From Nannocystis pusilla (GTDB taxonomy: Bacteria > Myxococcota_A > Polyangia > Nannocystales > Nannocystaceae): a stretch of 64,000 nt of DNA. Below the pieces are notes generated by a model, which was not told the origin of the DNA, did no database searches, and saw only the letters and a list, made by a program, of their open reading frames with translations. The position numbers and the translations under genes are program-made. This document shows, in pieces, positions 18,621 through 52,487 of the stretch; within the stretch, counting starts at the first letter, position 1, and each line of letters begins with the position of its first letter. Location: assembly GCF_026626665.1 (NCBI RefSeq), contig NZ_JAPNKE010000002.1, positions 3,693,168-3,757,167 of the forward strand, given 5' to 3'.

Positions 18621-18643
18621 AACATGTCCGTTCAGGCATGTCC
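18621..18643. promoter_or_regulatory. two CATGTCC motifs (AACATGTCC ... GGCATGTCC) spaced 14 bp, ~290 nt upstream of the TSP3 lipoprotein gene
   Basis: Same motif family as at 29543-29595, 31177-31186 and 41538-41587. Confidence 0.35.
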
Positions 18644-18930
18644 TATCAATCCGATCGTGGACCCCGCGCAGCGACGCCGCGGGCCGCGGGCGCGACTCGA
18701 TCGGGTCCTCGAAGCCCCATCTCAGCCGTTCAGCGATCGTGAGTTTGCGAGCGGCCGCACCCGCGAGCGCCGCTTCCCATGCACCTCCTCGCGCCGCGCC
18801 GCGGGAGCTCCTCGCCCGCCCGGACCCCCGCCGCCGCTCGCCCTGCCGGGTCCGAAGTCCGTCCGATCGTCCGCGCGCACGGCCGCAAAATCGATGAGCT
18901 ACTGCGATCTGCTCGCGCGACTGCAGCGTC

Positions 18931-20394
18931 ATGATTCGCCCTCACCACCGCCAACCGCGCCGGCTGCTCGGCGCCGTGCTCCTCGCCCTCGGCGCTTGCA
19001 ACCCCGCCGTGCTCGACCCCTTCGAAACCGACGGCGCCACCGAACCCGGCGCCACCGTCGACCCCGGCAGCACGAGCGGCGCCACCGGCCCCGCCGAATC
19101 GACCTCCGGCGCGAGCACGACCGCCGACCTGACCACCACCGGCACCACCGGCGGCGACGAGCCGCTGCCGAGCTGCGACGGTCCGGTCACCGACTGCAAG
19201 CTGGACCTGGACCGCGACGGCGTGATGGGGCACTGCGACAACGCTCCCGATCACTTCAACCCTGACCAGTCGGACGTCGACGGCGACGGCTTCGGCGACG
19301 TCGCCGACCTCTGCCCCACTCTCCCAGTCGGCGAGCCCAAGGCCGACAGCGACAAGGACGGCATCGGCAACGCCTGCGACCTGTGCGTCAAGGCGGCCGC
19401 GCACTACAACGACCCCGACGCCCCGATCCCCGAGCGCCTGAAGGTGCGCAACATCCCGAGCACCGCCGACAGCGATCGCGACGGCATCGGCGACGCCTGC
19501 GACAACTGCGTGCGCACCCCCAATTGCGAGGGCTACGGCGAGGGCCTCGACCCGTACGAGCTCGGCGATCCGATCGCCTTCGACGGCCCCGACTGCCAGA
19601 TCGACGCCGACAACGATCTCGTCGGCGACGCCTGCGCCGGCACCATGCTCCCGGGCGCCGCCGGCCCGGTCGGCTTCGGCCTCGACGACGACTTCGACCA
19701 GGACGGCCTGCGCAACGGGGACGACGGCTGCCCGCGCCAGCCCGTGCCCCTGCAGGCGTGCGACGACGACGTCGACTGCCCGACGGCCAGCAAGTGCGTC
19801 CAGGGCCAGTGCGGCCACGCCGACCTCGACGGCGACGACGTCGGCGACATCTGCGACCCCCTGCCCCTTCGTCGGCAACCCGCAGCAGGTCCAGCCGGGC
19901 ATGGCGGAGGAGAGCGACCAGGACGGCGACTTCGTCGGCTTCAACTGCGAGTCCACGTCGGACGCCGACCTCGTCCCCGACCCGCGCCGGATCGGCTTCT
20001 ACGACCTCAGCGCCAACGGCTATTGCTGCGTCCGCCTCCACCCCGCCGGCACCACCCTCGATCCCGACGGCGCCACCGTGCCGCTGCCCGCCAAGGTCCT
20101 CGCCCAACCAGGCGTCGGCCAGCTCCGCCCGGCTGCGCCCAGGAGGGCCAGCCGCTGAACGGCACCGTCGACCTCGCCACCTTGTGGGCCAGCTTCTGCC
20201 TCATGCCGCAGTCGGACCAGGACTTCGACGGCGTCGGCGACGTCGTCGATCTGTGCCCCTGGTCGTTCGACCCTGTCAACACCGTCTACGTCGACGACGC
20301 GAACATGCAATGGGAGAACTACGGCGAGTTCTGCCAGGGCGAGTACAGCCCCGAGCACCTTGACCCGGCGATGATGTGCATGCCGGGCACCTGA
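18931..20394 (+). CDS. lipoprotein with thrombospondin type-3 (calcium-binding DxDxDGxxDxxD) repeats; two frameshifts
   Basis: N-terminus LGAVLLALGACNP is a lipobox. Many DSDKDGIGNACDLC / DSDRDGIGDACDNC repeats spread over three frames. Confidence 0.6.
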   Translation: MIRPHHRQPRRLLGAVLLALGACNPAVLDPFETDGATEPGATVDPGSTSGATGPAESTSGASTTADLTTTGTTGGDEPLPSCDGPVTDCKLDLDRDGVMGHCDNAPDHFNPDQSDVDGDGFGDVADLCPTLPVGEPKADSDKDGIGNACDLCVKAAAHYNDPDAPIPERLKVRNIPSTADSDRDGIGDACDNCVRTPNCEGYGEGLDPYELGDPIAFDGPDCQIDADNDLVGDACAGTMLPGAAGPVGFGLDDDFDQDGLRNGDDGCPRQPVPLQACDDDVDCPTASKCVQGQCGHADLDGDDVGDICDPLPLRRQPAAGPAGHGGGERPGRRLRRLQLRVHVGRRPRPRPAPDRLLRPQRQRLLLRPPPPRRHHPRSRRRHRAAARQGPRPTRRRPAPPGCAQEGQPLNGTVDLATLWASFCLMPQSDQDFDGVGDVVDLCPWSFDPVNTVYVDDANMQWENYGEFCQGEYSPEHLDPAMMCMPGT

Positions 20395-20652
20395 TGACGC
20401 GCCCGCTGCGGCGCCTGTCCTTCGCGACATATCCCATCGAACATGCGCATCGTACTCGGCTCGCGGTCGAGCGAGCGCCGTCACCCGGTGACGCGCCACA
20501 CCCAAATACCTCGACCACCGCCAGGACCTCCGCGCGGTATCATGAATGGGCGGCGCCCCGAAGCGCCCGCGCATTCGCGTCACCCGCAGCGGGTCACGCG
20601 TGCGGCTGGCGGGGCGACCGCAGCGCCGGGGGATCGTTCGCGGCGCAAAAGG

Positions 20653-20689
20653 ATTCGGCGCGCCTGCAGGACCTGCAGGCGCGCCGAAT
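20653..20689 (-). terminator. 37-nt near-perfect palindrome ATTCGGCGCGCCTGCAGG-a-CCTGCAGGCGCGCCGAAT, 34 nt downstream of csbD; putative bidirectional terminator hairpin
   Basis: 18-bp inverted arms seen directly in the sequence. It lies between convergent genes (TSP3 lipoprotein and csbD). Confidence 0.45.
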
Positions 20690-20723
20690 CGCATCGCAGA
20701 GCGGCGCGGAGCGCCGACATTCG

Positions 20724-20930
20724 TCACAGGTTGCTGTTGTTCTCGGCCTTGTAGCCCAGCTTGCGCTCGATCTCTTCGCGGCGCTCACCCGAGCGCTCCT
20801 GAATGATCCCGCACAGCTTGTCGGCGTTGCCTTCGGCCTTGAGGAAATCGTCGTCGGTCAGGTTCCCCCAGAACTGCTTCGCCTTGCCCTTGAGCTGCTC
20901 CCACTTCCCCTGGATTTGATCGCGGTTCAT
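20724..20930 (-). CDS. csbD: CsbD-family general stress protein
   Basis: RBS GGAGAAACCGACC then ATG. Product [48 protein letters not shown] is the canonical CsbD fold sequence. Confidence 0.7.
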
Positions 20931-21431
20931 GGTCGGTTTCTCCGCCCACCAGTTTGATCGTGGTTGCACGGCGCGCCTGCCCGACTAGCGCCACGAAACG
21001 GCGCCAGGCGCTCGCCGACGGCCCTTGTCGGACCGTCGATTTCGGCGGCCCGTTCGCCATTCCCACCGTTCGCGCGCATGACGCCGCCCGATCGTACGAA
21101 TCACGCCGCAGCGGGCTCGGCCGTATGAACCCGCCTCCCCCTCGACCTCGGCGCCTTTCTGCGGGGACGCGGGCGTGGAGACGGGGGTATCACCTGGCCC
21201 GCACCCGAGACCCGATCCTCGCAGCGACTCTTGCATAGGCGTCATGCGAAAGATCACCTGCCCGGCCGCGCTCGGCCCCCTGCGCGCCCCGCCACGAATC
21301 ACCATTCGTGCGAATCATGGGCCCTCACGGGCTGCGGCGGCCGGGCGCGGCCACCCGCTCGTCGGAGTTCACCGCGCCGCGGCCAGCGGCCGGCGGGGCG
21401 CCTCGGACACCGCGGACACAAGGAGCATCGG

Positions 21432-24400
21432 GTGAACCTCACCAGGGACGAGCAGCGCACGTCGCTCACCAAGCGGCTCACCGTAGCGATCGCCACGCCG
21501 ATCGCCCTCCTGTTGCTGCTCGGCGTCGTCCTCGGCCGGCAGATCCTCCTGATGGCGGACGACGCCGCCTGGGTCAACCACAGCAATGAAGTCCTCTCGC
21601 AGGCCAACGCGACGATGCTCGAGATCGTCGATCAGGAGACCGCCCTGCGCGGCTTCCTGTTGACCGGCGATCGCCAGTATCTGGGCCCGTTCGAGCGGGC
21701 GCACCCTGACGGCAAGTTCGAGCGCCTGCACGAGATCGTCGCCGACAGCCCCTCGCAGCAGGCTCAGTTCGATCAGGCCCACCAGCACTACCGCGAGTGG
21801 TACGCCACCTGCGAGGCCGCCCTGAACGGTCACGACCTCGACCAGGCGCGCAGCCCCGCCGCCATGCTCGCGCGCAAGGCCCGGATGGACGACATCCGCG
21901 AAGCCATGGCCGTGGCCACCGACATCGAGAAGGACCTGCTGCGCGCGCGCCGTCGCCTCGGAGCGCTCGACCGCGGTCGCGCGGACCGCCTTCGTCGCGC
22001 TGCTCGCCGGCGTCGCCCTCCTGCTCGCCTTCCTCTCGCGCCGTCAGCTCGCCGCGATCGCCAGCACCTTCGGCACCGCCCTCGACGCCGAGCAGCAGGC
22101 CCGCGCCGCGCTCGAGGCCGAGGCGTGGATCCGCGAGGGTCACACGCGCGTCGCCGAGGTCGTGCAGGGCGAGAAGAGCACCGTGCAGGTCGGCCACGAC
22201 TGCCTGGCCGCGCTCGCCGCTCACGCCGGCGCCGACGTCGGCGCCTTCTTCGTGCGCGACGGCGGCGACTGGGTGCGGCGGATCGGCCTCGCGCTCGACT
22301 CGCGGGTCGCCGGGCCCGAGACCTTCGCCGCCGGTGAGGGCGTCATCGGCCGCGCCGCCGCCGGCGGCCAGGTCGTCGAGCTGCGCGACGCCGCCGAGCT
22401 GCCCCTGCGCACCGGCACCAGCGAGCGCTTCCCCGCCCACGTGCTCGTCCTGCCCGCGCGGGTCGACGGCGTCACCGTCGCCGTGCTCGAGCTCGGCTTT
22501 TTGCGCCCGGCCGAGCCGCGCGTGCGCCGCTGCTCGAGCGGATCGGCGAGACCGTCGCGCTCGCGGTCCGCAGCTCCGAGCAGAAGGAGCGGCTCGCCGC
22601 CCTGCTCGAGGAGACCCAGCGCCAGGCCGAGGAGCTGCAGACCCAGCAAGAAGAGCTGCGGGTGCAGAACGAGGAGCTCGAGCAGCAGACCCGCGCGCTC
22701 GAGGAGTCGCGGGCGCGCCTCGGCAATCAGCAGGCCGAGCTCGAGCAGATCAACGCCCACCTCGAGGAGCAGACGCAGGCGCTGCAGGCCGAGCGCGACA
22801 CCCTCACGCAGGCGCAGATCCAGCTCAAGCGGACCTCGGCCTTCAAGTCCGAGTTCCTCGCCAACATGTCGCACGAGCTGCGCACCCCGCTCAACAGCTC
22901 GCTGATCTTGGCCCGCCTGCTGGCCGACAACCGCCAGGGCAACCTCGACGCCGAGCAGGTCAAGTTCGCCGAGACCATCTACTCCGCCGGCAACGACCTC
23001 CTCACCCTCATCAACGACATCCTCGACCTGTCGAAGATCGAGGCCGGCATGCTCGACGTCCGGCCCGAGACCATCTCGCTGGCGCGGCTCACCGATCAGA
23101 TGATGACGACCTTCCGCCCGGTCGCCCGCGACCGGCGGCTCGCCCTCGACCTCGACGTCCAGCGCGACGTCCCGGGCGCGCTCGTCACCGATCCGACGCG
23201 GCTGTCGCAGATCCTGCGCAACCTGCTGTCGAACGCGCTCAAGTTCACCGAGCAGGGCGGCGTCAAGCTCACGGTGCGCGCCGCCGGGGCCGGCAGGGTC
23301 GCCTTCGACGTCACCGACACCGGCATCGGCATCCCGCCCGATCAGCAGGAGCTGATCTTCGAAGCGTTCCGCCAGGCCGACGGCACGACCAACCGCAAGT
23401 ACGGCGGCACCGGCCTTGGTCTGTCGATCTCACGCGACCTCGCGCGCCTGCTCGGCGGCGAGCTCACCGTCGCCAGCGTCGTCGGCCGCGGCAGCACCTT
23501 CACCCTCACCATCCCCGCGCAGCTCGTCGTCCATGGCTCGGCCGCGGCGCCGAGCCTCGCGCCCTTGCCGCCTCCGCCGCCGCTTCCTCCCCTGCGTCGC
23601 CTCCCCGCGCCCCCGCCTCTGCCCCAGACGCCGACCGCCGCGCGCTCGATCCTCCTCGTCGAGGACGACCCCGCGTTCGCCGGCGTCCTCGCCGGCCTCG
23701 CGCGCGAGCTCGACTTCCACCCCTCCACGCCGACACCGCCGAGGAGGGCCTTGCGCTCGCGCGGCAGCAGCGGCCGAGCGCCATCGTCCTCGACGTCTCT
23801 CTGCCCGACCGCTCCGGCCTCAGCGTCCTCGACGCGCTCAAGCATGACCCTGCGACCCGGCACATCCCGGTCCACGTCATCTCCGCCAGCGACCACACCC
23901 GCACCGCGCTCGAGATGGGCGCGGTCGCCTACGCCATCAAGCCCGTCGTCCGCGATCAGCTGGTCACGGCCTTGCGGCGGCTCGAGTCGAAGGCCACCCA
24001 GTCGCTGCGGCGCGTCCTCGTCGTCGAGGACGACGTCGTCCACCGCGAGAGCACCTGCAAGCTGCTCGCGGCCGACGACGTCGAGACCGTCCCGGTGGGC
24101 ACCGCCGCCGACGCGCTCCGCGCGTTGCGCACCACCACCTTCGACTGCATGGTCCTCGACCTCAGCCTGCCCGACAGGTCAGGTTCCGAATTGTTGCGGG
24201 AGATGGCCCAGGGCGAGCAGTACGGGTTCCCGCCCGTCATCGTCTACACCGGCCGCGCGATCAGCCGCGCCGAGGAGCAGGAGCTCGGGCGCTTCTCGCA
24301 GTCCATCATCATCAAGGGCGCGCGCTCGCCGGAGCGGCTGCTCGACGAGGTCACCCTGTTCCTCCACCAGGTCGAGACCAACCTTCCGCCCGAGCGACAG

Positions 24401-25623: not shown

Positions 25624-25626
25624 ACC

Positions 25627-28310: not shown

Positions 28311-28318
28311 GGACGTCC
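28311..28318. promoter_or_regulatory. GGACGTCC palindrome (variant of the GGACATGTCC family) 38 nt upstream of adh; the same octamer recurs at 51264-51271 upstream of the ABC transporter
   Basis: Seen in the sequence, in the divergent ppa/adh intergenic region. Confidence 0.3.
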
Positions 28319-29525: not shown

Positions 29526-29570
29526 GTCTCGCGTGCCCCTTGGGGCATGTCTCTTCTACCATGTCTTTCA

Positions 29571-29594
29571 GGGCATGTCCTCATCGACATGCCC
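29571..29594. terminator. hairpin GGGCATGTC-n6-GACATGCCC between convergent genes (adh + / GAF-HK -); putative bidirectional terminator or REP-like element
   Basis: 9-bp perfect inverted arms. An additional GCCCC-tt-GGGGC hairpin lies at 29535-29546. The region is AT-richer than its flanks. Confidence 0.4.
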
Positions 29595-29595
29595 C

Positions 29596-31176: not shown

Positions 31177-31186
31177 GGACATGTCC
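31177..31186. promoter_or_regulatory. perfect palindrome GGACATGTCC in the divergent promoter region between GAF-HK (-) and SDR (+)
   Basis: Seen in the sequence, 77 nt upstream of ATG 31263. Confidence 0.4.
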
Positions 31187-36174: not shown

Positions 36175-36688
36175 CCCGCGGGTCGCCCTCCGCCGCGCTC
36201 GCCGGCTGCTCGTCGTCCCGCCCGCGGCCGGCTGCGACGAGCTCGGGCCGGCGCTCGTGCGCCTGCGCGTCGCGGTGCCGCAGGCGAAGGTGGTCCTGCT
36301 GGCCGACGCGCGCGCGGCCGGGCGCGTCGCCGCCTTCGTCGACCAGGTCGTGCCGGCCGGCGCCCTGACGCGGTTCGACGCCCCGCACCTCTCGACCCTG
36401 GTCGAGCGGCTGGCCGCAGCGCGCCTCGACGCCGCCCTGGTGTTCACGGCCGCCGGCGAGACCGCCTTCGAGGTCGCCTACCTCGCCTATCTCGCCGGCA
36501 TCCCGGTGCGCGCCGGCTTCGCCGGCGAGTTCGGCGGCGGCGTGCTGGCGCCGGCCGTCCCGCCCCCGTCGGCCCGCGTCATCGGTCCGGGGCGTCACCT
36601 CTCCCTGCTCGACGCGCTCGACCTGAGCGCGGCTCTCGCCCCCGCGAGCGCGAAAGCGAGGCCCTCGTGCGACGACTCCGCGTCCTGA
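36167..36688 (+). CDS. GT9 N-terminal-domain-only protein; possibly fused to the downstream GT4 by a frameshift
   Basis: GTG overlaps the upstream stop. Matches only the N-terminal Rossmann half of heptosyltransferases. It ends 20 nt into the next ORF in another frame. Confidence 0.4.
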
Positions 36689-37630
36689 CCTGGCACGTTC
36701 ACGGCAGCTACCTCTACTACCTCACCCAGGCCCCGCACGAGTTCTACCTGCCCGTAAAGCCAGGTCGTCCCGAGGGCTACGGCGGGCGCAGCGGCAGCTT
36801 CCCCTGGGGCGCCAACGTCCACGAGGTCCCGGTCGAAGCCGTCGCCCAGCAGCCATTCGACGTCGTCCTGTTCCAGTCGCGCCGCAACTACGAGTGCGAT
36901 CAATTCGAGGTCCTCGGCGCCGCCCAGCGCCGCCTGCCGCGCGTCTACCTCGAGCACGATCCGCCGCGCGAGTCGCCGACCGACACCCGCCACCCCGTCG
37001 ACGACCCCGACGTCTTGCTCGTCCACGTCACCCCGTTCAACGCCCTGATGTGGGACGCCGGGCGCACCCCCGTGCGGGTCGTCGAGCACGGCGTCGTCGT
37101 CCCCGACGACGCCGTCTACAGCGGCGAGCTCGCGCGCGGCGTCGTCGTCGTCAACGACCTCGCGCGGCGCGGGCGACGGCTCGGCCGCGACGTGTTCGAC
37201 CGCGTGCGCGCCCACGTCCCGCTCGACCTCGCCGGCATGGACTCGGCCGCGCTCGGCGGCCTCGGCGACCTGCCGCTGGGCGAGCTCCACGCCCGGCTCG
37301 GCCGCTACCGCTTCTTCTTCAACCCGATCCGCTACACCAGCCTCGGCCTGGCCGTGTGCGAGGCGATGATGATCGGCCTGCCGATCCTCGGCCTCGCCAC
37401 CACCGAGATGAGCACCGCCGTGCAGCGCGGCGTCAACGGCTACGTCGAGACCGACCTCGACCGCCTGCTCGCGCACATGCGGCGCCTGCTCGCCGATCCG
37501 GCCGAGGCCGCCGAGCTGGCCGCCGGCGCGCGGCGGATCGCCCGCCAGCGGTTCGGCATCGCCCGCTTCGCCGCCGACTGGTCGCGGATCCTGGGCGAGG
37601 TCACAGGCTGTCCCGAAGGACATCTAATAA
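36667..37630 (+). CDS. GT4-like glycosyltransferase; 3' end unresolved
   Basis: [19 protein letters not shown]...EAMMIGLPILG.... Frame 1 has no stop until 40098 and runs into a 78-bp repeat array with atypical codon usage. A +1 shift near 37595 would end at the double stop TAATAA (37625-37630). Confidence 0.5.
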
Positions 37631-38040
37631 CCCACGCTCGCGGATGTCCCGAGAGCCAGGTCGGAGCCCCGGCCGAGGTCACCGGGTGTCCGGATGGACA
37701 TGCCACCGCCCACGCCACGGGATGTCCCGAGAGCCAGGTCGGAGCCCCGGCCGCTCTCCAAGGATGTGCCGATGGACCTGCCATCGCCCACGCCACGGGA
37801 TGCCCCGAAAGCCAGGTCGGAGCCCCGGCCGATATCCCCGGATGTCCCGATGGACTAGCCACCACCGGCGCCACGGAATGTCCCGAGAGCCAGGTCGGAG
37901 CCCCGACCGACCTCCCCGGATGTCCCGATGGACAGGCTATCGCCCCACCCGGCTCCCCGGCATGTCCCGGAGACCAGGTCGGCCCCCTGGCCGGGATCAC
38001 CGCCTGTCCCGCGGGACAGGCCCCGGAGCCCCCCGGAGGA
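37598..38040. repeat. tandem array of ~5.6 copies of a 78-bp unit (one copy 84 bp) between the two GT4 genes; each unit carries GGATGTCCCGAGAGCCAGGTCGGAGCCCCGGCC and GTCCGGATGGACATGCC-like motifs; ends in the perfect palindrome CCTGTCCCGCGGGACAGG (37999-38016)
   Basis: Direct repeat boundaries at 37598, 37675, 37753, 37831, 37909 and 37993. GC3 of the in-frame reading is far below the local coding norm (gga/tgt/gat/cat codons). Confidence 0.7.
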
Positions 38041-38044
38041 CCGC

Positions 38045-39916
38045 GTGAAGCCGCTGCCGTTCGAGACCGGCGCCGGCGTCGGCCATTCGCAGAGCCCGCT
38101 GCGGATCGCCATGATCAGCGAGCACGCCTCGCCGCTCGCCCCGCTCGGCGGGCGCGACAGCGGCGGCCAGAACGTCTACGTCGCCCAGGTCGCGCGCCAC
38201 CTCGGCCGCCTCGGCCACCGCGTCGACGTGTTCACCCGCCGCGACAGCCCGACCTTGCCGGCGGTCGTCGAGCTGGCCGACGGCGTGCGCGTGATCCCGG
38301 TCGACGCCGGCCCGCCCGCGCCGCTGGCCAAGGAGTCGCTGCTGCCGCTCATGCCTGCCTTCACCCGCGAGGTCGCGGCCCACGCCCGGCGCGAGCGCTA
38401 CGACCTCGCGCACGCCAACTTCTTCATGAGCGGCCTCGTCGCCGCCGAGCTCAAGCGCGAGCTCGGCGTCCCGTTCGCGGTCACCTTCCACGCGCTCGGC
38501 AAGGTCCGGCGGCAGCACCAGGGCCAGGCCGACGGCTTCCCCGACGAGCGCTTCGCCATCGAGGCGCGGGTCGTCGGCGAGGCCGACCTGATCGTCGCCG
38601 AGTGTCCGCAGGACGAGGTCGACCTCATGACCCTCTACGCGGCCGACCCCGAGAAGCTGGTCATGATCCCGTGCGGCTTCGACCCCGAGGAGTTCTGGCC
38701 CGGCGGTCGCGCCGAGGCCCGCGCCGCGCTCGGCCTCGCCGACGGCGACCGCGTCGTCTTGCAGCTCGGGCGCATGGTCCCGCGCAAGGGCGTCGACAAC
38801 GTCATCCGCGCGCTCGCGCGGCTGCCGGGCGAGCTGCGCGCGCGGCTCGTCGTCGTCGGCGGCGAGTCGCGCCGGCCCGACCCGGCCCTCACCCCCGAGA
38901 TCGGCCGATTGATGGCGGTCGCCCGCGACGAGGGCGTCGCCGATCGCGTCACCTTCGTCGGCAGCCGCGGCCGCGGCGAGCTGCGCGACTACTACGTCGC
39001 CGCCGACGTATTCGTCAGCACCCCCTGGTACGAGCCGTTCGGCATCACCCCGCTCGAGGCCATGGCCTGCGGCGTCCCGGTCGTCGGCGCCAACGTCGGC
39101 GGCATCGCCCACACCGTCGCCCACGGCGAGACCGGCTACCTCGTCCCGCCGAGCGACCCCGACGCCCTGGCCGACAAGCTCGCCCTCGTGCTGTCGCAGC
39201 CGCGCCTGGCCCGGCGCCTGGCCCAGCTCGGCCTGCAGCGCGTCCACGCGTTGTTCACCTGGGAGAAGGTCGCCGCCCGCCTGGCCGACGCCTTCGCCGC
39301 GGCCGCGGGCCGGCGCCCCGCCCAGGCCCCCACCGCCGCCTTCGCCGCGGTCGATCGCGGCTTCGACGACCTCCTCGCGGTGCTCTCGCGCGCCAAGACC
39401 TGCCTGCGCGACGACATCGTCCGCGCCGCCGACCTCGTCAGCGGCGCCTTTGCCCGCGGCGCCAAGGTGCTCGTGTGCGGCAACGGCGGCAGCGCCACCG
39501 ACGCCCAGCACTTCGCCGCCGAGCTCGTCGGCCGCTTCCTCGCCCCCGACCGCGCCGCCTTGCCGGTCATCGCCCTCAACGCCGACACCGCGGTCCTGAC
39601 CGCGTGGGCCAACGACGTCGGCTACGCCGACGTGTTCGCCCGCCAGGTCCGCGCCTACGGCCGCCCCGGCGACGTGGTGTTCGGCATCTCGACCAGCGGG
39701 CGCTCGGCCAACGTCGTCGCCGCCCTCAAGACCGCGCGCGACTGCGGCCTGCGCACCTTCGCCTTGCTCGGCGGCACCGGCGGCGAGGCCGGCGATCTCG
39801 CCGACTGCGCCCTCATCGTCCCCTCCCCCGACACGCAGCGCATTCAGGAGGTCCACACATTGGCCCTCCACCTGATCTGCGAATTGGTCGAGGCGCGGGT
39901 GGCCCCGTCGTCCTGA
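38045..39916 (+). CDS. bifunctional GT4 glycosyltransferase (MshA-like) fused to SIS-domain sedoheptulose-7-phosphate isomerase (GmhA)
   Basis: RBS ggagga then GTG 38045 (alternative ATG 38111). GT4: LRIAMISEHASPL...GGQNVYV...EPFGITPLEAMACGVPVV. C-terminal SIS: VCGNGGSATDAQHFAAELVGRF...GISTSGRSANV. Confidence 0.75.
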   Translation: MKPLPFETGAGVGHSQSPLRIAMISEHASPLAPLGGRDSGGQNVYVAQVARHLGRLGHRVDVFTRRDSPTLPAVVELADGVRVIPVDAGPPAPLAKESLLPLMPAFTREVAAHARRERYDLAHANFFMSGLVAAELKRELGVPFAVTFHALGKVRRQHQGQADGFPDERFAIEARVVGEADLIVAECPQDEVDLMTLYAADPEKLVMIPCGFDPEEFWPGGRAEARAALGLADGDRVVLQLGRMVPRKGVDNVIRALARLPGELRARLVVVGGESRRPDPALTPEIGRLMAVARDEGVADRVTFVGSRGRGELRDYYVAADVFVSTPWYEPFGITPLEAMACGVPVVGANVGGIAHTVAHGETGYLVPPSDPDALADKLALVLSQPRLARRLAQLGLQRVHALFTWEKVAARLADAFAAAAGRRPAQAPTAAFAAVDRGFDDLLAVLSRAKTCLRDDIVRAADLVSGAFARGAKVLVCGNGGSATDAQHFAAELVGRFLAPDRAALPVIALNADTAVLTAWANDVGYADVFARQVRAYGRPGDVVFGISTSGRSANVVAALKTARDCGLRTFALLGGTGGEAGDLADCALIVPSPDTQRIQEVHTLALHLICELVEARVAPSS

Positions 39917-39928
39917 ATCATGGCCCCC

Positions 39929-40171
39929 GGAGGACCGATGACCCGCGTGTTCGCATCATCCCTCGCCACGACCGACCGCTCGGACCTCTGCATCGAATCA
40001 TCGCCATCGGAGGACCGATGACCCGCGTGATCGCATCTCTCGTCACCCGCGGCGGCTCCGGCCCCTGCATCGAATCATCGCCATCGGAGGACCGATGACC
40101 CGCGTGATCGCATCTCTCGTCACCCGCGGCGGCTCCGGCCCCTGCATCGAATCATCGCCATCGGAGGACCG
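39929..40171 (+). repeat. three tandem copies (80, 77, 77 nt) of the RBS + start codon + first ~20 codons of the downstream SDR gene; they form a chain of three ATGA-overlapping mini-ORFs (27, 26, 26 aa)
   Basis: ggaggaccgATGacccgcgtgatcgc... recurs at 39929, 40009 and 40086. The authentic gene starts at 40172. Each mini-ORF stop, TGA, overlaps the next ATG. Confidence 0.75.
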
Positions 40172-40912
40172 ATGACCCTCGTGATCGAATCACCCCTCGC
40201 GGACAAGATCGTCCTCGTCACCGGCGGCGGCTCGGGCCTCGGCGCCGAGATCGGTCGCACCCTCGCGGCCGCCGGCGCCCACGTGATCGCCGCCGACATT
40301 CAGACCGGCCCGCTCGCCCGCCTCGTCGCCGAGGTGCGCGACCTCGGCGGCCGCATCGAGGCGGCGGAGCTCGACGTCCGCGACGCCGACGCCGGCCAGG
40401 CCTTGGTCGACGGCATCGTCGCCCGCCACGGCCGGCTCGACGTCCTCGTCAACAACGCCGGCACCGACAAGACCTTGGCGGTCGACGAGCTCAGCGTCGA
40501 CGACATCGACCGCGTCCTCGCCGTCAACCTGCGCGGCCCGTTCGTCCTCAGCCGCGCCGCCTTCCCGCGCCTGCGCGCCCAGGGGGGCGGCTACATCGTC
40601 AACATCGTCTCGACCGCCGCCAAGCGGGCCTGGCAGAACGCCAGCGCCTACCACGCCAGCAAGTGGGGCCTTTTGGGCCTCTCGCACGCCCTGCACGTCG
40701 AGGGCCGCCCATTCGGCATCAAGGTCACCGCCCTGCTGGCCGGCGGCATGCGCACCCCCTTCATCCTCGACCGCTTCCCCGACACCCCGATCACCAACCT
40801 TCAGGACCCGCGCAACGTCGCCGAGACCATCCGCTTCCTCCTCGCCATGCCCGGCGAGTCGGTCATCCCCGAGCTGATGGTCGTGCCGATGCGCGAGACG
40901 AGCTGGCCATGA
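40172..40912 (+). CDS. classical SDR-family oxidoreductase
   Basis: VLVTGGGSGLGAEIG, NNAG, YHASKWGL. Intact. Overlaps gmhB via ATGA. Confidence 0.8.
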   Translation: MTLVIESPLADKIVLVTGGGSGLGAEIGRTLAAAGAHVIAADIQTGPLARLVAEVRDLGGRIEAAELDVRDADAGQALVDGIVARHGRLDVLVNNAGTDKTLAVDELSVDDIDRVLAVNLRGPFVLSRAAFPRLRAQGGGYIVNIVSTAAKRAWQNASAYHASKWGLLGLSHALHVEGRPFGIKVTALLAGGMRTPFILDRFPDTPITNLQDPRNVAETIRFLLAMPGESVIPELMVVPMRETSWP

Positions 40913-41553
40913 CCCGCCTCCGCCCCGCCGCCTTCCTCGACAAGGACGGCACCCTCATCGACGACGTCCCCTACAACGTCGACCCCGCCCACGTCCGCCT
41001 CACCCGCGGCGCCCGCGACGGCGCCTGGTCGCTGCGGGCCGCCGGCTACGCCCTCGTCGTCGTCACCAACCAGTCCGGCGTCGCCCGCGGCCTGTTCGGC
41101 GCCCACGACCTGCTCGGCGTCCAGGCCCGCGTCGAGGACCTCCTCGGCCTCGAGCTCGACGGCTTCTACTGGTGCCCGCACCTGCCCGCCGGCGTCGTCG
41201 CCGAGTACGCGATCGTCTGCGCCTGCCGCAAGCCCGCCCCCGGCCTGCTCACCCGCGCCGCCGCCGAGCTCGGCCTCGACCTCGCGCGCTCGTGGATGAT
41301 CGGCGACATCGCCAGCGACATCGAGGCCGGCCGCCGCGCCGGCTGCCGCACCGCCCTGCTCGCCGCCTCGCCGCCCCCGGCCCTGCGCCCCGCGCCCACC
41401 CTCGTCGCCGCCGACCTCGCCGAGGCCGCCCGCCGGATCGTCGGCGACGCCGCCCGCAGCGACCACGACGAGCACCCCGCGCCCCCGCCTGAGCGCCCGC
41501 GATGCTCTCTCGCAGCTCACGCTCGCCGGTCCTTAAAGACATGTCCTCCATGA
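40909..41553 (+). CDS. gmhB: D-glycero-D-manno-heptose 1,7-bisphosphate phosphatase (HAD family)
   Basis: AAFLDKDGTLI...VVVTNQSGVARG...CPHLP...CRKPAPGLL...MIGDIASDIEAG. Confidence 0.75.
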   Translation: MTRLRPAAFLDKDGTLIDDVPYNVDPAHVRLTRGARDGAWSLRAAGYALVVVTNQSGVARGLFGAHDLLGVQARVEDLLGLELDGFYWCPHLPAGVVAEYAIVCACRKPAPGLLTRAAAELGLDLARSWMIGDIASDIEAGRRAGCRTALLAASPPPALRPAPTLVAADLAEAARRIVGDAARSDHDEHPAPPPERPRCSLAAHARRSLKTCPP

Positions 41554-41587
41554 CATGTCCAAAAACGAATGTCCGAACGGACATGTT
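41538..41587. promoter_or_regulatory. cluster of four GACATGTCC-type motifs spaced 14 bp apart, including the inverted repeat ATGTCCG-aa-CGGACAT, in the AT-richer gmhB-hldE intergenic region
   Basis: agACATGTCCtccatgACATGTCCaaaaacgaATGTCCgaacGGACATgttc seen directly in the sequence. It lies upstream of the hldE ATG at 41633. Confidence 0.45.
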
Positions 41588-41632
41588 CTCAAAGGCATGG
41601 TTTAGAACACACCATCACCCGGAGCGCCCGCG

Positions 41633-43096
41633 ATGACCCACGTCCTGCTCCCCGTGCTCGACGCCTTCGCCGACCTGCGGACCCTCGTGATCGGCGAGGC
41701 CATGCTCGACGCCTACCTCGACGGCCACAGCGAGCGGCTGTGCCGCGAGGCCCCGGTGCCCGTCGTCGACGTCGACGCGCGCCGCGACGTCCCCGGCGGC
41801 GGCGCCAACACGGCCGTCAACGCGGCCGCGCTCGAGGCCCGGGTCACCTTCCTCTCCGTCGTCGGCGGCGACGACGAGGCCGACCGCCTGGCGCGCTCGC
41901 TGGCCGCCCTCGGCGTCCCCGCCCACGGCCTCGTGCGCGCCGGCGGGCGCCGCACCCTCGTCAAGCAGCGCGTCCTCGCCGGCGGCCAGATCCTCCTGCG
42001 CCTCGACGCCGGCAGCCGCGACGACCTCGACCCCGTCACCGAGGCCCGCCTGTGCGAGCGCCTGCGGGCCGCCTGGAGCGACGTCGACGCCGTCATCGTC
42101 TCCGACTACGGCTACGGCCTCCTCACGGGCGGCGTGATCGACGAGCTCGCCGCACTGCAGGCCGCCCACCCGCGCGTCCTCGTCGCCGACGCCAAGGACC
42201 TGCGCCGGCTAGCGCGCGCCCGGCCCACCGCCGTCAAGCCCAACTACTGCGAGGCCGCGCGCCTGCTCGGCCTCGCCAATGGCCACGGCGACGGCCGCGT
42301 CGAGCAGATCGCCGCCCACGAGGCCGAGTTCCTGCAGATCACCGGCGCGCGGATCGCCGCCGTCACCCTCGACTGCGCCGGCGCCCTGGTCTTCGAGACA
42401 GGTCAGCCCGCCTACCGCACCTACGCCCGGCCCTCCTCCGACGCCAACGCCACCGGCGCCGGCGACACCTTCGTCGGCGCCCTCGCCCTCGCCCTCGCCG
42501 CCGGCGCCCCGACCCACGCCTGCGCCGACCTGGCCTCGAGCGCCGCCAGCCTCGTGGTCGCGCGCGACGGCACCACCGCCTGCAGCGCCGCCGAGCTGCG
42601 CGTCCACCTCGCCTCGCAGGACAAGCTGCTCGGCCACGACGACCTCGCCCTGCTCGCCGACTGCCTGCACCGCGCCGGCAAGCGGCTCGTGTTCACCAAC
42701 GGCTGCTTCGACATCCTCCACCGCGGCCACATCACCTGCCTCAGCCGCGCCAAGGCGCTGGGCGACGTCCTGATCGTCGGCCTCAACGCCGACGCCAGCG
42801 TCCGCCGGCTCAAGGGCGCCGCTCGCCCGATCAACTGCGCCGCCGATCGGGCCCAGGTGCTGGCCGCCCTCTCGTGCGTCGACCACATCGTCGAGTTCGC
42901 CGACGACACCCCGACCCGCCTCATCGAGCTCGCGCGGCCCGACGTCTACGTCAAGGGCGGCGACTACAGCCTCGACAAGCTGCCCGAGGCCCCGCTCGTG
43001 TCGCGCCTCGGCGGCGAGGTCTGCTTCATGCCCTACCTCGACGATGTCAGCACCACCGGGATCCTCGCGCGGATCGGCGAACGAGGCCCGGGATGA
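41633..43096 (+). CDS. hldE: bifunctional D-beta-D-heptose 7-phosphate kinase / D-beta-D-heptose 1-phosphate adenylyltransferase
   Basis: N-terminal PfkB kinase domain (GGGANTAVN...NATGAGDTF). C-terminal cytidylyltransferase domain (FTNGCFDILHRGH). Intact. Confidence 0.9.
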   Translation: MTHVLLPVLDAFADLRTLVIGEAMLDAYLDGHSERLCREAPVPVVDVDARRDVPGGGANTAVNAAALEARVTFLSVVGGDDEADRLARSLAALGVPAHGLVRAGGRRTLVKQRVLAGGQILLRLDAGSRDDLDPVTEARLCERLRAAWSDVDAVIVSDYGYGLLTGGVIDELAALQAAHPRVLVADAKDLRRLARARPTAVKPNYCEAARLLGLANGHGDGRVEQIAAHEAEFLQITGARIAAVTLDCAGALVFETGQPAYRTYARPSSDANATGAGDTFVGALALALAAGAPTHACADLASSAASLVVARDGTTACSAAELRVHLASQDKLLGHDDLALLADCLHRAGKRLVFTNGCFDILHRGHITCLSRAKALGDVLIVGLNADASVRRLKGAARPINCAADRAQVLAALSCVDHIVEFADDTPTRLIELARPDVYVKGGDYSLDKLPEAPLVSRLGGEVCFMPYLDDVSTTGILARIGERGPG

Positions 43097-44196
43097 CCTG
43101 GTCGTCCGCCCGCCGCGTCCTGTGCGTCCGCCTCGACACCGTCGGCGACGTGCTCATGACCACCCCGGCCCTGCGCGCGCTCAAGGAGGGTCACCCGCAG
43201 CGCCACCTCACCCTCCTCACCTCGAGCCCCGGCGCCCTCGTCGGCCGCCTCGTGCCCGAGGTCGACGACGTCTGGACCTACGACGCCGCCTGGCTCAAGG
43301 CCGGCCCCGCGCGCCGCGACGCCAGCCTCGACCGCGGCGTGATCGACCGCCTCCGCGCCGGCCGCTTCGACGCCGCCGTCGTCTTCACCGTCTACAGCCA
43401 GAACCCGCTGCCCGCCGCCCTCCTCGCCTGGCTCGCCGACATCCCGCTGCGCCTGGCTCACTGCCGCGAGAACCCCTACCAGCTCCTCACCGACTGGATC
43501 CCCGAGACCGAGCCCGAGCGCGGCGTGCGGCACGAGGTCACCCGCCAGCTCGACCTCGTCGCCGCCGTCGGCCTGCGCCCCTCGCATCATCGACTGTCCC
43601 TCCGGCCATGTCCCGAAGACCACCTCGCGGCCGAGGCCGAGCTCCGCCCCCTGCGCCTCGGCCGGCGCTGGGCCGTCGTCCACCCCGGCGCCACCGCCAG
43701 CTCGCGCCGCTACCCGCCCGCCGCCTTCGCCGTGGTCGCCCGCGCCCTCGTCCGCGACCACGGCGTCGGCCTCGTGTTCACCGGCGCCGGCGACGAGGTC
43801 CCTCTGGTCGAGCAGATCCGCGGCGCCGCCGGCGTCCCCACCCACTCCCTCGCCGGCCGCCTCTCGCTCGGCGCCCTCGCGGCCGTGATCGCCCGCGCCG
43901 GCCTGCTCATCAGCAACAACACCGGCCCCGCCCACGTCGCCGCCGCCGTGGGCACCCCCGTCGTCGACCTCTACGCCCTCACCAACCCGCAGCACACCCC
44001 CTGGGCCGTCCCCGCGCGGGTCCTGAACCACCCGGTCCCGTGCGCCCCCTGCTACCGCTCGACCTGTCCCGAAGGCCATCACCTGTGCCTGCGCGGCGTC
44101 CCCCCGGCCGCGGTCGTCGCCGCCGCCCTCGAGCTGCTGCGCCCCGACCCCCGCGAAGCCCCCACCGCCGCCCCGGTCCCCCTCGCCCTCACGTGA
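43093..44196 (+). CDS. GT9 heptosyltransferase
   Basis: ATGA overlap with hldE. RVLCVRLDTVGDVLMTTPALRAL..., C-domain ...NNTGPAHVAAAVGTPVVDLY. Intact. Confidence 0.8.
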   Translation: MTWSSARRVLCVRLDTVGDVLMTTPALRALKEGHPQRHLTLLTSSPGALVGRLVPEVDDVWTYDAAWLKAGPARRDASLDRGVIDRLRAGRFDAAVVFTVYSQNPLPAALLAWLADIPLRLAHCRENPYQLLTDWIPETEPERGVRHEVTRQLDLVAAVGLRPSHHRLSLRPCPEDHLAAEAELRPLRLGRRWAVVHPGATASSRRYPPAAFAVVARALVRDHGVGLVFTGAGDEVPLVEQIRGAAGVPTHSLAGRLSLGALAAVIARAGLLISNNTGPAHVAAAVGTPVVDLYALTNPQHTPWAVPARVLNHPVPCAPCYRSTCPEGHHLCLRGVPPAAVVAAALELLRPDPREAPTAAPVPLALT

Positions 44197-44247
44197 CGCG
44201 TCGCCTCGACCGCAACCCCACTTCGAATCACTCGCCTCCTCGATGTC

Positions 44248-46706: not shown

Positions 46707-46892
46707 ATGCATCTCGAACGAGTCGAAACCCGATCGGAGCAGAGCCACGGCACCGCCGTGGAGCCGTGGAGCAACCTCGACGAGGACGACTTTCTCATCG
46801 CGGCCGAGGCCAGCCTCGAAGCCCTGTACGAGGGCGAGGACGAGGAGGAGTTGTCCCCGGACGACATCGAGGAGTTGCCCGAAGATCAGTAG
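46707..46892 (+). CDS. small acidic protein (61 aa), hypothetical
   Basis: RBS gggaggaacactcgcc then ATG. C-terminus is very acidic (EGEDEEELSPDDIEELPEDQ). Confidence 0.35.
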   Translation: MHLERVETRSEQSHGTAVEPWSNLDEDDFLIAAEASLEALYEGEDEEELSPDDIEELPEDQ

Positions 46893-47084
46893 GCCGATCC
46901 TGCCGTCCGGGCCGACATCCGGGACCACCCGCTCTACATAGTCTCCTTACATCACCCAGACTTGCTCACCGCCGGGCACCGCGCAGACCCCCTGATATCA
47001 ATCATGGCCCTCGCCCAGAGGAGCGATTGCCACCCGGGCTGAAGCCCGCGCCACTGCTCCGAGCGGCGCCCCGGCGCCTGCCTG

Positions 47085-48011: not shown

Positions 48012-48078
48012 CACGTTCACCGCGTACAAGACCGGGCCCCGCCGCGCGGCTAGCCTCGCGCTCTCCCGACCTGGCCCG

Positions 48079-49170: not shown

Positions 49171-49238
49171 GCGGCGACGAAGCGAGGGACGCATCGCCGG
49201 CAGGCGACGCGCCCCTCTCGCGCCCGCAGCTCGCCGGC

Positions 49239-51074
49239 TCAGGCCAGCTCGCAGGCCATGTGCGGGCGCTCGTCGGGCATGGCGAACAGCGGCCGCTCGC
49301 GCGGCAGCTGCGACGGCGACAGCTCGTGCACGGCGCCGTCCTCCACGAACAGCACCCGGTCGAACAGCGACAGCAAGCTCCAGCGGTGGCACGCCGCCAG
49401 CACCGTCGCCTCGGGCGACGACTGGAAGATGGCAGCCAGCACCTCGCGCTCGGTCGGCGGGTCCAGGGCCGCCGTCGGCTCGTCGAGCAGCAGCAGGTCC
49501 CGCGAGTGCGCCCGCAGCAGCCCGCGGGCCAGCGCGATCCGCTGGCGCTCGCCGCCGGACAGGTTGAGGCCGCTCTGGGCCAGGTGCGTGTCCCAGCCCG
49601 CGGGCAGCTTGGCGATCACCGGTCCCAGGCGCGCCAGGCGGATCACCTGCGCCAGCAGCTCCTCCGGCACGGCCTCGCCGAGCGTCACGTTGTAGCGCAG
49701 CGTCTCCGAGAAGATCTGCGGCTCCTGCGGGATCAGCAGCGTGCGCTGGGCCAGCGCCTCGAACGAGCTGCGGCGGCCGTCGAGCGCCACCTCGCCCGCC
49801 TCCGGGCGCAGCATCCCGGCCAGCAGCTTGAGCAGCGTCGACTTGCCGCCGCCGCTCGTGCCGACCACCGCGATCTTCTCGCCGCGGCGGATCGTCAGCG
49901 ACCCGCAGCGGAGCGCCCGCGCATCGTCTGCGTAGCTGAACCCCAGCGCGTCGAGCCGCAGCTCGCGCCAGCGCGGCCCGGCCACCGACGCCGGCATGGC
50001 CGCCGGCGACCCGCGCAGCAGCTCGCTGGCGTCTTCGTAGGCGGTGCAGGCCTCGACGATGTTGCCGTAGTAGGCCGAGAAGGAGCTGATCGCCCCGAAG
50101 ATCTTGTCGAGGTAGGCGATGAGCACGTAGACCTGCGCCACGTCGAGCGCGGTGCCCTGCAGGCCGGCGCCGTGGAAGTACCACAGCAGCGACGTCGCCA
50201 TCACCAGCGCGTAGCCGCAGCTCACCGCCCCCCACTTGAGCTCGCTGAAGCGCGACACCCGGCGGACCAGCTCGCCGCCCTGGGCTCGCTGGCGCCCGAG
50301 GTCGGCGCAGGCCAGCGCCTCGAGGTTCAGCGTCTTCACCGTGACCACGTTCGTCAGGTAATCGACGCACACCCGGCCGACCGTGTTGTCGAATTGATTG
50401 ACCAGGCGGATGTTGTCGACCATGCGGCGGTTGAAGTACAGCATCGCCGCGATGGTGACCCCGCCCATGACCACCACGTTGGCGGCCACGCGCACGTCGA
50501 GGGCCCACAGCGCCGCGCTGGCGAGCACCACCTTGACGCTGCCCTCGAGCACCTGCCACGAATACTGGCCGACCACGTTGCCGACCGCGAGCGCCGAGCG
50601 GTTGAGCTTGGCCAGGTTCTCGCCCGTGTGGCGCTCCACGTGCCAGTGCAGCCCGTAGCCGAGCAGCGCCTGGAACACCCCCGTCATCGTCGTCATGCGC
50701 GCCTGATAGGCCACCCCGCTCTGCAGGTAGCGCCCCAGGTGGTGCAGCAGGATGTTGGCGAAGCGCAGCCCGAGGTACGCGCCGATCCCGAGCAGCGCGC
50801 CCTCGTAGGCGACCTGCGAGAAGCCGTGCTCGACGAACACGCCGACCGTGTAGCCGATGGCCCACGGGACCAGCAGCTCGGCCGTGTTGGCGGCGATGAA
50901 CAGGGCGACGAACGCCCAGAAGCGCGACCGGCTGGGGGCCACGGCCGCCCACGCGGCCCGCAGCAGCGGCGCCAGCCCGCGCGCGGGTGGCAGCGGCCGC
51001 GCCGGCCCGGCGGCTTCGCGGGCCCCGACCCCGGCCCACGACCACGGCGAGAGGAAACGAGCGAGTGCGTGCAT
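49239..51074 (-). CDS. ABC transporter, fused permease/ATP-binding exporter (MsbA-like)
   Basis: Six-TM N-terminal domain. Walker A GTSGGGKST, signature LSGGERQRIALAR, Walker B LLLLDEPT. Intact. Confidence 0.85.
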   Translation of the reverse strand: MHALARFLSPWSWAGVGAREAAGPARPLPPARGLAPLLRAAWAAVAPSRSRFWAFVALFIAANTAELLVPWAIGYTVGVFVEHGFSQVAYEGALLGIGAYLGLRFANILLHHLGRYLQSGVAYQARMTTMTGVFQALLGYGLHWHVERHTGENLAKLNRSALAVGNVVGQYSWQVLEGSVKVVLASAALWALDVRVAANVVVMGGVTIAAMLYFNRRMVDNIRLVNQFDNTVGRVCVDYLTNVVTVKTLNLEALACADLGRQRAQGGELVRRVSRFSELKWGAVSCGYALVMATSLLWYFHGAGLQGTALDVAQVYVLIAYLDKIFGAISSFSAYYGNIVEACTAYEDASELLRGSPAAMPASVAGPRWRELRLDALGFSYADDARALRCGSLTIRRGEKIAVVGTSGGGKSTLLKLLAGMLRPEAGEVALDGRRSSFEALAQRTLLIPQEPQIFSETLRYNVTLGEAVPEELLAQVIRLARLGPVIAKLPAGWDTHLAQSGLNLSGGERQRIALARGLLRAHSRDLLLLDEPTAALDPPTEREVLAAIFQSSPEATVLAACHRWSLLSLFDRVLFVEDGAVHELSPSQLPRERPLFAMPDERPHMACELA

Positions 51075-52487
51075 GATCACCAATCGGCGCCGGAGGACCG
51101 GGTCGAAGGGGCGCTCAGCCCCGCAGCTCCACGAGGTTCGCAACGAACGCTCGTGCGCGGATGGAGGAGGTTCTCGGGCAGGGACGGCGCGTCGGCGTGA
51201 TCATGAGGAATGAACGTCGGTGCGGAGGCATCAAAATGCATGGAGTCCAGGGATTGCGAGCGAGGACGTCCTCCGACGATCGCTCGCAGCAGCAGAGGCG
51301 GCTGACTATAACAGACGGCCGTCCGCCGCCGCCAGCCGTGAATCGCAGCGGCGGCCGCTCCGCCCGGCGGAGCGAGCGCCGCGCCGCAAGGCGACTATGA
51401 TCATAGCGCGCCCGCCGATCGCCCTGCGTCCGCGAATGGCCGACCCTCTCGCAAGTAGCGACGATCGGTCGCAGCCTCGACGCCCCGGCCATGCACCAGC
51501 ATCAATCTCCGCGATCTCACGCCGCGCGGGCACGGGGGCCCGTCACCGGCGTCTCTTGCCGGCATTCGCCCCCCATTCGCCGCTGCCGCCTCCCGGCACA
51601 TTCACCTCCGCAGAGCCCGCTGGTTCGCCGGTCCGCGCGCCGCCGGAGCCCCCCAATTACATCCTACCGGGTCCTGCGAGCACGACCGGAAATCCCCCAC
51701 CTGCGCGGGCATTTGCCAGGTTGACCGCTGTCCCCGGGCCAATTAGCCCAGTGTGATGTCCCCCCGCAACGAGCAAACCCGGCAGCGCTCCGGGACGAGA
51801 CTATCGTCTGCAACTTGACGTATCAAACCCGGCGCTTCCTGGTGCTCCGCGGCGACCTCGAGCTGGCCGGCATCGATCGGGCGCTGCAGCCGCGCTCGCA
51901 GATCGAGGCGAGGTTCGACTCTCTGTGGCAGACGGCGCTCGAGCCGGCGCTGCGGGCCGGTCTCGAGCTCACGTTCGCCGAGCGATGCGGCGCCTCGCCG
52001 CCGCTCGTGGCGCTACGAGAATCGCAGCCATGGCGACCGCCGATTGCCCGCCGCTCTCGCTCTTCGCGGCGACGCGCTGCGGTGATTCCACGCCACCCGG
52101 AGCGCCCCTCGCTCGGCGTCGCCGAATGCTCGCCCTCACCGAGCGTCGCGATACGTCGATTCGTAAGCGTTCGCTCTACCGCGTCGTGATGCTGGCGCAT
52201 CTTGATTTATATCTCATGTGTGAGCACCGAATCTGCCTTCACCCCGCTGGCCCCGTGCTGGCTGGGGCTCGCGTTGTGGTCACCGACCCTGCTTACGGGC
52301 CATCCGCGCGGGATCCCCGAAGAAGAAATCGAGGATATCTGCGACGGCCTGTTCGGCCGTATCCCACGCGTGTACGAAATCTCCTGGTCCCGGCCCAGAC
52401 TCCCAGTCTTCGGAGCTGACGATCCACTGGCCGCTCGCGCGGTGCAGCACGAGCGATGGTGCGTCACACACCGGCCCGTCGAGCCGC

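Follow-up and report, generated by a model that had tools for sequence, protein, structure and literature searches.

A 14-bp palindrome, single or in head-to-tail arrays, lies mostly directly downstream of genes in the myxobacterial genus Nannocystis

Among the known systems closest to the intergenic repeat reported here are the repetitive extragenic palindromic (REP) sequences, bacterial interspersed mosaic elements (BIMEs) and REPINs of Enterobacteria and Pseudomonas. These elements occur in hundreds of copies and are bound by host DNA proteins, which in E. coli are IHF and gyrase. Here, we analyzed a 64,000-nucleotide stretch of Nannocystis DNA (contig NZ_JAPNKE010000002.1; the window hereafter, 72% GC), in which an earlier inspection of the sequence, the original prediction, had noticed a recurrent palindromic motif (GRCATGTCC) and proposed that it was either a regulon operator or a REP-like element. 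We found that the repeat unit is a 14-bp palindrome, TGTCC-N4-GGACA, which occurs singly or in head-to-tail arrays. As in REP/BIME and REPIN elements, the units are extragenic, palindromic, clustered, located downstream of genes or between convergent genes, lineage-specific, and variable between strains. No description of the family was found in the literature on Nannocystis repeats, GGACATGTCC, TGTCC/GGACA palindromes, or myxobacterial REPs, so the family is apparently new to the literature.

The recurrence of the motif in the window is real, with nine matches to GRCATGTCC against 0.90 expected and none of 100 shuffles reaching nine. Related patterns were likewise enriched, including ATGTC-N6-GACAT with up to one mismatch (12 observed, 0.52 expected), pairs at period 14, CATGTCY-N7-CATGTCY, with up to two mismatches (19 observed, 0.69 expected), and TGTCC-N4-GGACA with up to one mismatch (13 observed, 1.6 expected). 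Most of the copies first reported were recovered (Table 1): the two units of array A, 14 bp apart; the four units of array B, which include CATGTC-N6-GACATG; the perfect GGACATGTCC of site D; and the copies upstream of hldE (array C), which are five units spaced 14, 15, 13, and 14 bp. The occurrences of GGACGTCC at 28311 and 51264, in contrast, do not belong to the family, since this is a different word found at chance frequency (2 observed, 3.1 expected). Further copies had been missed, namely, a degenerate three-unit array at 20414 and weak sites in coding sequence at 43593 and 44065.

The 612 kb of Nannocystis-like DNA hold 100 exact TGTCC-N4-GGACA sites, against 1 in 408 kb of high-GC control loci, and isolated 14-mers outnumber isolated decamers by 35 to 4. 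Given this contrast with the controls, and since the 14-mer alone is commoner than the decamer alone, the arrays are therefore rows of abutting 14-bp sites, in which the decamer GGACATGTCC is the junction of the GGACA of one unit with the TGTCC of the next. This head-to-tail abutment accounts for the exact 14-bp period, for the junction decamer, and for the near-invariant CATG; adjacent decamers are spaced exactly 14 bp in 65 of 68 pairs. Weaker flanks extend the symmetry of the unit to C-M-TGTCC-N4-GGACA-K-G, or 18 bp. The spacer measures 4 nt in 110 sites, 3 nt in one, and 5 nt in none, and its sequence is variable, with about 50 to 55% GC within arrays (summed from the array tables), a symmetric Y...R preference, and no enrichment of GNRA or UNCG. 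Intergenic arrays comprise 2 to 11 decamer units, with odd and even numbers equally frequent. Weakened half-sites rarely adjoin at junctions (20 observed against ~34 expected; p = 5e-4).

Restriction avoidance was ruled out as the cause of the missing GCATGC junction, given an observed-to-expected ratio of 0.93 for GCATGC in the Nannocystis-like sequences analyzed. Extended complementarity of the flanks was also rejected, as it is not general among arrays, and the likeness of GGACATGTCC to a p53 half-site is a coincidence. A variant arrangement, (C)CTGTCC-N4-GGACAGG, was seen at longer periods in three sequences (L129, 4434-4629; L201, 2200-2271; L207, 290-396), with a 21-bp period (TGTCCGCGGGGACAGGTGAGC) in L129 in place of the 14-bp abutment.

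To place the family relative to genes, 147 arrays, drawn from 75 sequences that total ~612 kb of Nannocystis-like DNA, were classified using a gene caller based on GC content at third codon positions (GC3), which was checked against public calls on the N. bainbridge sequence L119. The arrays are nearly confined to intergenic DNA, directly downstream of stop codons and, above all, between convergent genes. As many as 118 of the 147 are intergenic, including 20 at contig edges, and the 29 inside called coding sequence are mostly weak two-unit chains. The 98 classifiable intergenic arrays comprise 52 in convergent gaps (96 gaps of this type), 40 in co-directional gaps (188 gaps), and 6 in divergent gaps (84 gaps), a distribution that differs from the background (chi-square 56, p = 6e-13). 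Within co-directional gaps, the median distance from the upstream stop to the array is 15 nt and that from the array to the following start is 141 nt, and 29 arrays are closer to the stop against 11 closer to the start (two-sided binomial about 0.006, computed by hand). Within convergent gaps, 46 of 52 arrays are within 25 nt of a stop, and many overlap the stop codon. Public gene calls on two loci chosen independently of the motif (L246 and L249) agree with this placement, as seen in N. pusilla L249, where five of seven intergenic arrays abut stops.

In the window, array B is convergent, array C and the 20414 array follow stops, and array A and site D are divergent, and a promoter reading was therefore plausible from the window alone. 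Across the 147 arrays, however, the bias is toward gene ends, with none toward promoters (6 divergent against 52 convergent arrays), and this placement therefore rejects a promoter regulon as the general explanation and supports the REP-like alternative. It is thus very improbable that the arrays are operators through which one dimeric transcription factor controls a regulon. Such a factor would suit a palindrome of fixed spacing, the divergent position of array A, and site D, which lies in a promoter-like conserved block and is perfect in four genomes. Nevertheless, the arrays outside divergent gaps adjoin stops, the site density is far too high for a specific regulon, array B fills a convergent gap that has no promoter, the genes beside arrays are functionally unrelated, and arrays are gained and lost between near-identical genomes. 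Conservation at orthologous promoters was seen for site D only, which may be a true operator. The site also resembles the CRP/FNR-, LexA-, and PadR-like operators (ATGT-N8-ACAT, CTGT-N8-ACAG, 5-N4-5), and both its gene-end position and its copy number argue against a regulon of these types.

The position of the arrays would also fit RNA-level elements, that is, hairpins in 3' untranslated regions (a 5- to 7-bp stem with a 4-nt loop, or longer nested stems) acting as terminators that need no U-tract or as blocks to 3'-5' exonucleases, like E. coli REP. In favor of this, sites occur just after stops and in convergent gaps, canonical terminators are often lacking in high-GC genomes, and the RNA of array B is predicted to fold strongly (-43 kcal/mol, z = -6, on both strands). 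Tests that distinguish RNA structure from sequence-specific recognition at the DNA level nevertheless favor the latter, and we consider an RNA element unlikely. Strong folding of the arrays is expected because any array of palindromes folds. At the sole variable position of the arms, no covariation was detected (T/A 137, T/G 66, C/A 62, C/G 22; odds ratio 0.74, p = 0.33), so that at 22% of sites the 5-bp stem would be interrupted at its center by a C·A mismatch. On the sense strand of the upstream gene, G·U-compatible variants were not favored (39 versus 44), and the fold energies of the sense and antisense strands did not differ (p = 0.80). Moreover, the putative loop is fixed at 4 nt despite its varied sequence, odd and even unit counts are equally frequent, and single conserved sites, such as the lone site D, cannot form a hairpin. 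DNA-level recognition is also favored by the symmetric Y...R preference of the spacers, which do not resemble tetraloops, and by the scarcity of adjoining weakened half-sites.

Hallmarks of known RNA elements were not detected either. Of 56 oriented arrays, only 1 is followed by a T-tract (four or more T within the next 8 nt), and the downstream T content is 16%. A scan with a terminator consensus gave no hit at arrays in the sense orientation of the neighboring genes and one minus-strand hit in array C, and Rfam 15 had no match at E <= 1 in positions 18000 to 45000. No GTAG head was found in the positions flanking the sites, where the flanks are C-M and K-G. A CsrA/Rsm-type sponge RNA, suggested by GGA repeats on the minus strand, was also discarded; the GGA lies in paired arms, no Rfam hit was obtained, and no strand bias was seen. 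Taken together, the suggestion of a REP or terminator family was right in that the arrays are extragenic, at gene ends, genus-specific, and subject to presence/absence turnover, and it failed on the hallmarks of classical REPs and intrinsic terminators. The dimeric protein put forward in the original prediction fits the strict 4-nt spacer, the symmetric site, and the lack of RNA-type covariation.

Gain, loss, and replacement of arrays are all seen between closely related genomes. Array A is unchanged in L246 (98% related) and missing from L247 (97% related), and the 20414 array is better kept in L246 (GGACATGTCC ttcg AGACATGCCC cgtt GAACATGCGG) and deleted in L247. The convergent gap between the alcohol dehydrogenase (ADH) and histidine kinase genes is filled by an array in L246, L247, and L248 according to public gene calls, so all four syntenic genomes have one; yet its units, spacers, and flanks cannot be aligned between the window or L246 and either L247 or L248. 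Since arrays A and 20414 are missing from a 97% relative and array B is replaced, turnover outpaces the divergence of the flanking genes. The window ADH is 98 to 93% identical to Nannocystis proteins, and the window HldE shares 97% identity with a Logan-contig protein, 90% with that of Nannocystis bainbridge, and 81% with that of N. pusilla.

Array C offers a view of an insertion. Orthologous arrays are present in L122 (97%), N. bainbridge L119 (90%), and L123 (89%, where the array is split 2+2), and the array is absent from N. pusilla L120, L121, and L124/125, where gmhB and hldE overlap. The insertion of ~125 bp is bracketed by the direct repeat GAGCGCCCGCGATG, and the old gmhB/hldE junction has been duplicated, including the start codon. 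Comparison of the window with L122 shows 92% identity at the third codon positions of hldE and 77% across the gmhB-hldE gap; within the array, the cores match at 41 of 50 positions and the spacers at 8 of 16 (counted by hand from the alignment). Four Nannocystis genomes share the decamer of site D without a single change, within a conserved block. The conservation of cores over spacers in array C, together with that of site D, points to constraint after insertion. Cores are also mutable, with GGGCATGTCC in the window corresponding to GGGAATGTCC in L246. A separate observation concerns the two genes parted by array C in the window, since a 799-aa relative of the window hldE product (P0014), encoded in a related genome, is a fusion of a HAD phosphatase (gmhB) with HldE.

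This turnover could suggest a selfish mini-repeat, spread by a REP-associated tyrosine transposase (RAYT) or a similar enzyme acting on single-stranded DNA hairpins, lacking any host function and tolerated at gene ends alone. Consistent with it are the turnover and replacement of arrays among close relatives, the direct repeat around an insertion that separates translationally coupled genes, the restriction to one genus, and a strict geometry that would suit recognition by an enzyme. We nevertheless regard it as quite improbable, given that the units have no GTAG-type head and are far below the known length of REPs, that the cores of array C are conserved over the spacers, and that site D is perfectly conserved; no transposase was seen beside arrays, though no systematic search was made.

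Regarding the range of the family, one genome from each of 185,579 species was scanned for three CATGTC words spaced by 7 to 9 nt, and at least 118 loci matched. Among the matches listed, 11 come from Nannocystis genomes (N. punicea, N. bainbridge, N. radixulma, strain RBIL2, and metagenome-assembled genomes), and all 11 show period 14, variable spacers, and GGACATGTCC-like cores. Of the hits outside Nannocystis, the five delta-/myxobacterial records inspected are simple tandem or coding repeats, and none of the others fits a stricter three-unit pattern. With this pattern, only Nannocystis loci match, among 125 loci. The same pattern matches many metagenomic contigs of 70 to 77% GC and was not matched in viral contigs. 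Matches in low-GC metagenomic contigs (L168, L192, L205, L140, L145, and others) were set aside as unrelated, being perfect 14-bp satellites with identical spacers and 35 to 50% GC; these satellites contain GRCATGYC, for example, in repeated GGCATGTCTCTTTT. The density of arrays in Nannocystis is ~1 per 5 to 20 kb, and by extrapolation, the family would amount to the order of a thousand sites per 12- to 13-Mb genome.

A short genus-specific word of this kind might be a DNA-uptake signal, like the Neisseria DNA uptake sequence (DUS) or the Haemophilus uptake signal sequence (USS), enriched by biased uptake and recombination and gathering as inverted pairs at gene ends. The word is strand-symmetric and conserved in sequence, with no structural covariation, it is enriched at 3' ends, it turns over fast at orthologous positions, and DUS pairs commonly double as terminators. 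However, uptake has no need of the exact 4-nt spacing and the head-to-tail arrays, which are not known for DUS and USS, and the sites are rare in coding DNA. This origin therefore seems highly unlikely, and we know of no link between the 14-bp sites of Nannocystis and competence.

Overall, the reading that we prefer, and hold to be somewhat probable, is that of a dispersed DNA-level element specific to Nannocystis, whose 14-bp unit would be read with fixed geometry by a putative dimeric protein and whose arrays are located at gene ends. A dimeric sequence-specific protein would bind each 14-bp site and line up along the array, and an active DNA-level process, possibly through the same protein, would disperse units into permissive gene-end positions. 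Judged by position, the role for the host could be that of a bidirectional transcription barrier or insulator or, alternatively, of a place where a topology or nucleoid protein docks between transcription units that converge; both this gene-end function and the mechanism of dispersal are inferred. A bolder version, which we put forward only tentatively, is that a dedicated dimeric protein polymerizes on the arrays that follow hundreds of stops, making them a genome-wide bidirectional gene-end signal, with arrays laid down and renewed by an active DNA-level process. Such a signal would act as a roadblock terminator, an insulator, or a supercoil sink in a large high-GC bacterium without canonical hairpin-plus-U terminators.

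Several points weigh against the element being read as DNA at gene ends throughout the genome. Recognition of duplex DNA is something we infer from sequence statistics, and the strong folding of arrays, in a position typical of terminators and mRNA-stabilizing hairpins, leaves some room for an RNA-level role, unlikely as it is. Most arrays come from contigs selected by the motif, on which gene calls are GC3-based and were checked against public calls on few loci. The genome-wide count is extrapolated from ~0.2 Mb of motif-independent sequence with an uneven density, from 0 to ~7 arrays per 21 kb. In addition, target-site duplications are not general at arrays, a clear flanking direct repeat being found only at the hldE insertion.

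If the preferred reading is correct, Nannocystis marks many of its gene ends by a sequence-specific DNA signal of fixed geometry and not by RNA hairpins, a structurally distinct family would be added to the REP-type intergenic repeats, and the delimitation of transcription units in very large myxobacterial genomes of 72% GC would become more accessible. The bait for the protein is defined, namely, a three-unit array compared with a version carrying 5-nt spacers. The motif is also a strong marker of Nannocystis in metagenomes, may aid the annotation of gene 3' ends, and flags hot spots of structural variation inside operons.

Table 1. Positions of family sites and of the associated repeats in the window
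Feature	Position	Strand	Composition	Context
Array A	18620..18643		two decamer units (GAACATGTCC gttc AGGCATGTCC)	divergent gap upstream of TSP3 lipoprotein gene
Array at 20414	20414..20450		degenerate, three units (CCTGTCC ttcg CGACATATCC catc GAACATGCGC)	~20 nt after TSP3 stop
Array B	29543..29594		four units filling a 70-bp gap	convergent ADH (stop 29525) / histidine kinase (stop 29596)
Site D	31177..31186		single perfect GGACATGTCC; half-degenerate partner arms TTGCC-tgaa-GGACA / TGTCC-gatc-GGCCA	divergent promoter region of GAF-kinase and short-chain dehydrogenase/reductase (SDR) genes
78-bp array	37607..38021	+	78-bp (26-codon) tandem expansion, seeded on TGTCCCGAAGGACA site	3' end of glycosyltransferase gene
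Left direct repeat	41491..41504	+	14-bp direct repeat GAGCGCCCGCGATG, left copy	flanks array C insertion
Array C	41537..41602		five units	single operon, between gmhB stop (about 41490) and hldE start (41633)
Right direct repeat	41622..41635	+	GAGCGCCCGCGATG, right copy	ends on hldE start codon
Weak coding pair	43593..43613		two abutting weak sites (TGTCCctccGGCCA / TGTCCcgaaGACCA); membership doubtful	heptosyltransferase coding sequence
Weak coding site	44065..44078		one-mismatch site TGTCCCGAAGGCCA	coding sequence, ~120 nt before heptosyltransferase stop

As seen in Table 1, two of the features lie in heptosyltransferase coding sequence, and the site at 44065 is exact in the orthologues L120 and L124. 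Another feature, the 78-bp array, is a repeat of a different kind that carries family sites without the 14-bp phasing. The motif had been said to lie inside every unit of this array; most units do carry TGTCC-N4-GGACA, exact at 37687 and 37921 and with one mismatch at 37843, and it is degenerate in the unit at ~37765. There are two more exact sites, one (37609) immediately preceding the array and the other (38005) within its last partial unit. The seed site TGTCCCGAAGGACA is also present in the N. bainbridge coding sequence, and L246 has exact sites 78 bp apart. The array shows no codon-position GC bias (0.78/0.70/0.68), and its copy number varies among relatives, with orthologous proteins of 328, 352, and 434 aa.

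The glycosyltransferase open reading frame (ORF; 36667-40098) that holds this expansion has lost its ancestral stop (around 38020-38048). Compared with N. bainbridge, there is a 1-nt length difference just before the GTGA stop/start overlap, and as assembled, the ORF continues to 40098, crossing the next gene out of frame; the stop loss may be genuine, or the repeat may have been misassembled. A 77-bp tandem array (39915-40191; 3.6 copies, 91% identity) duplicates the ribosome-binding site, the ATG, and approximately the first 17 codons of a short-chain dehydrogenase gene (real start, 40172), where N. bainbridge has only a 25-nt gap (L119, 8552-8578). Three gene junctions of the lipopolysaccharide-core operon, those with the 77-bp array, the 78-bp array, and array C, thus carry junction duplications, and there are relatives without them.

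Other tandem repeats in the window lack the 14-bp palindrome: an 18-bp repeat of 4.5 copies at 18346-18428, which translates as PSEPAK repeats in one frame of the minus strand; a 21-bp repeat of 12 copies at 56462-56711; 21/42-bp repeats at 60738-60955; and a 144-bp repeat of three copies at 1-438. The GC content dips to 0.625 in 52001-54000, compared with 0.69 to 0.76 elsewhere in the window, and this stretch could be foreign or noncoding DNA. The sole Rfam hit above the gathering score in the window is an nhaA-I riboswitch (RF03057) on the minus strand at 13555-13605 (51.6 bits, gathering score 37).

Compared with the known systems, the family is extragenic, multicopy, and lineage-specific like REP/BIME elements (118 of 147 arrays intergenic; 100 sites in 612 kb versus 1 in 408 kb). 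Unlike REPs, which are maintained stem-loops of 20 to 40 nt in alternating orientation with variable linkers, its units measure 14 (to 18) bp, are symmetric in themselves, abut at exactly 14 bp, have no GTAG head, and show no stem covariation, so that the stem is not maintained as a structure. Neither the U-tract of intrinsic terminators nor the promoter placement of an operator regulon was found. The resemblance to DUS and USS lies in a genus-specific short word, conserved in sequence and often forming inverted pairs just after genes, and the difference lies in the fixed 4-nt spacing, the tandem arrays, and the location largely outside coding DNA. Comparable in geometry are the contiguous operators read by ribbon-helix-helix proteins (MetJ metboxes, omega-repressor heptads, and ParG/ParR centromere repeats), which are short, gapless head-to-tail sites of variable copy number, along which the dimers polymerize cooperatively; these are restricted to few promoters or plasmid centromeres, whereas the Nannocystis arrays stand at hundreds of gene ends. 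In placement, the arrays resemble the sites of roadblock terminators (Sal-box/TTF-I, Reb1, and mTERF), also tandem and just 3' of a gene, although those are eukaryotic or organellar and present at few loci, and the analogy is one of mechanism only, with no homology implied. Finally, CdbA of Myxococcus xanthus binds a specific GC-rich site at over 500 locations with no classical regulation of genes (PMC7156744). Its 569 peaks, about a third of them intergenic and the rest within genes, have no reported gene-end bias, and its motif consists of direct repeats 4 bp apart (PMC7156744). As a direct repeat and not a palindrome, this motif is not the Nannocystis site, but CdbA provides a precedent within the Myxococcota for binding at many sites.

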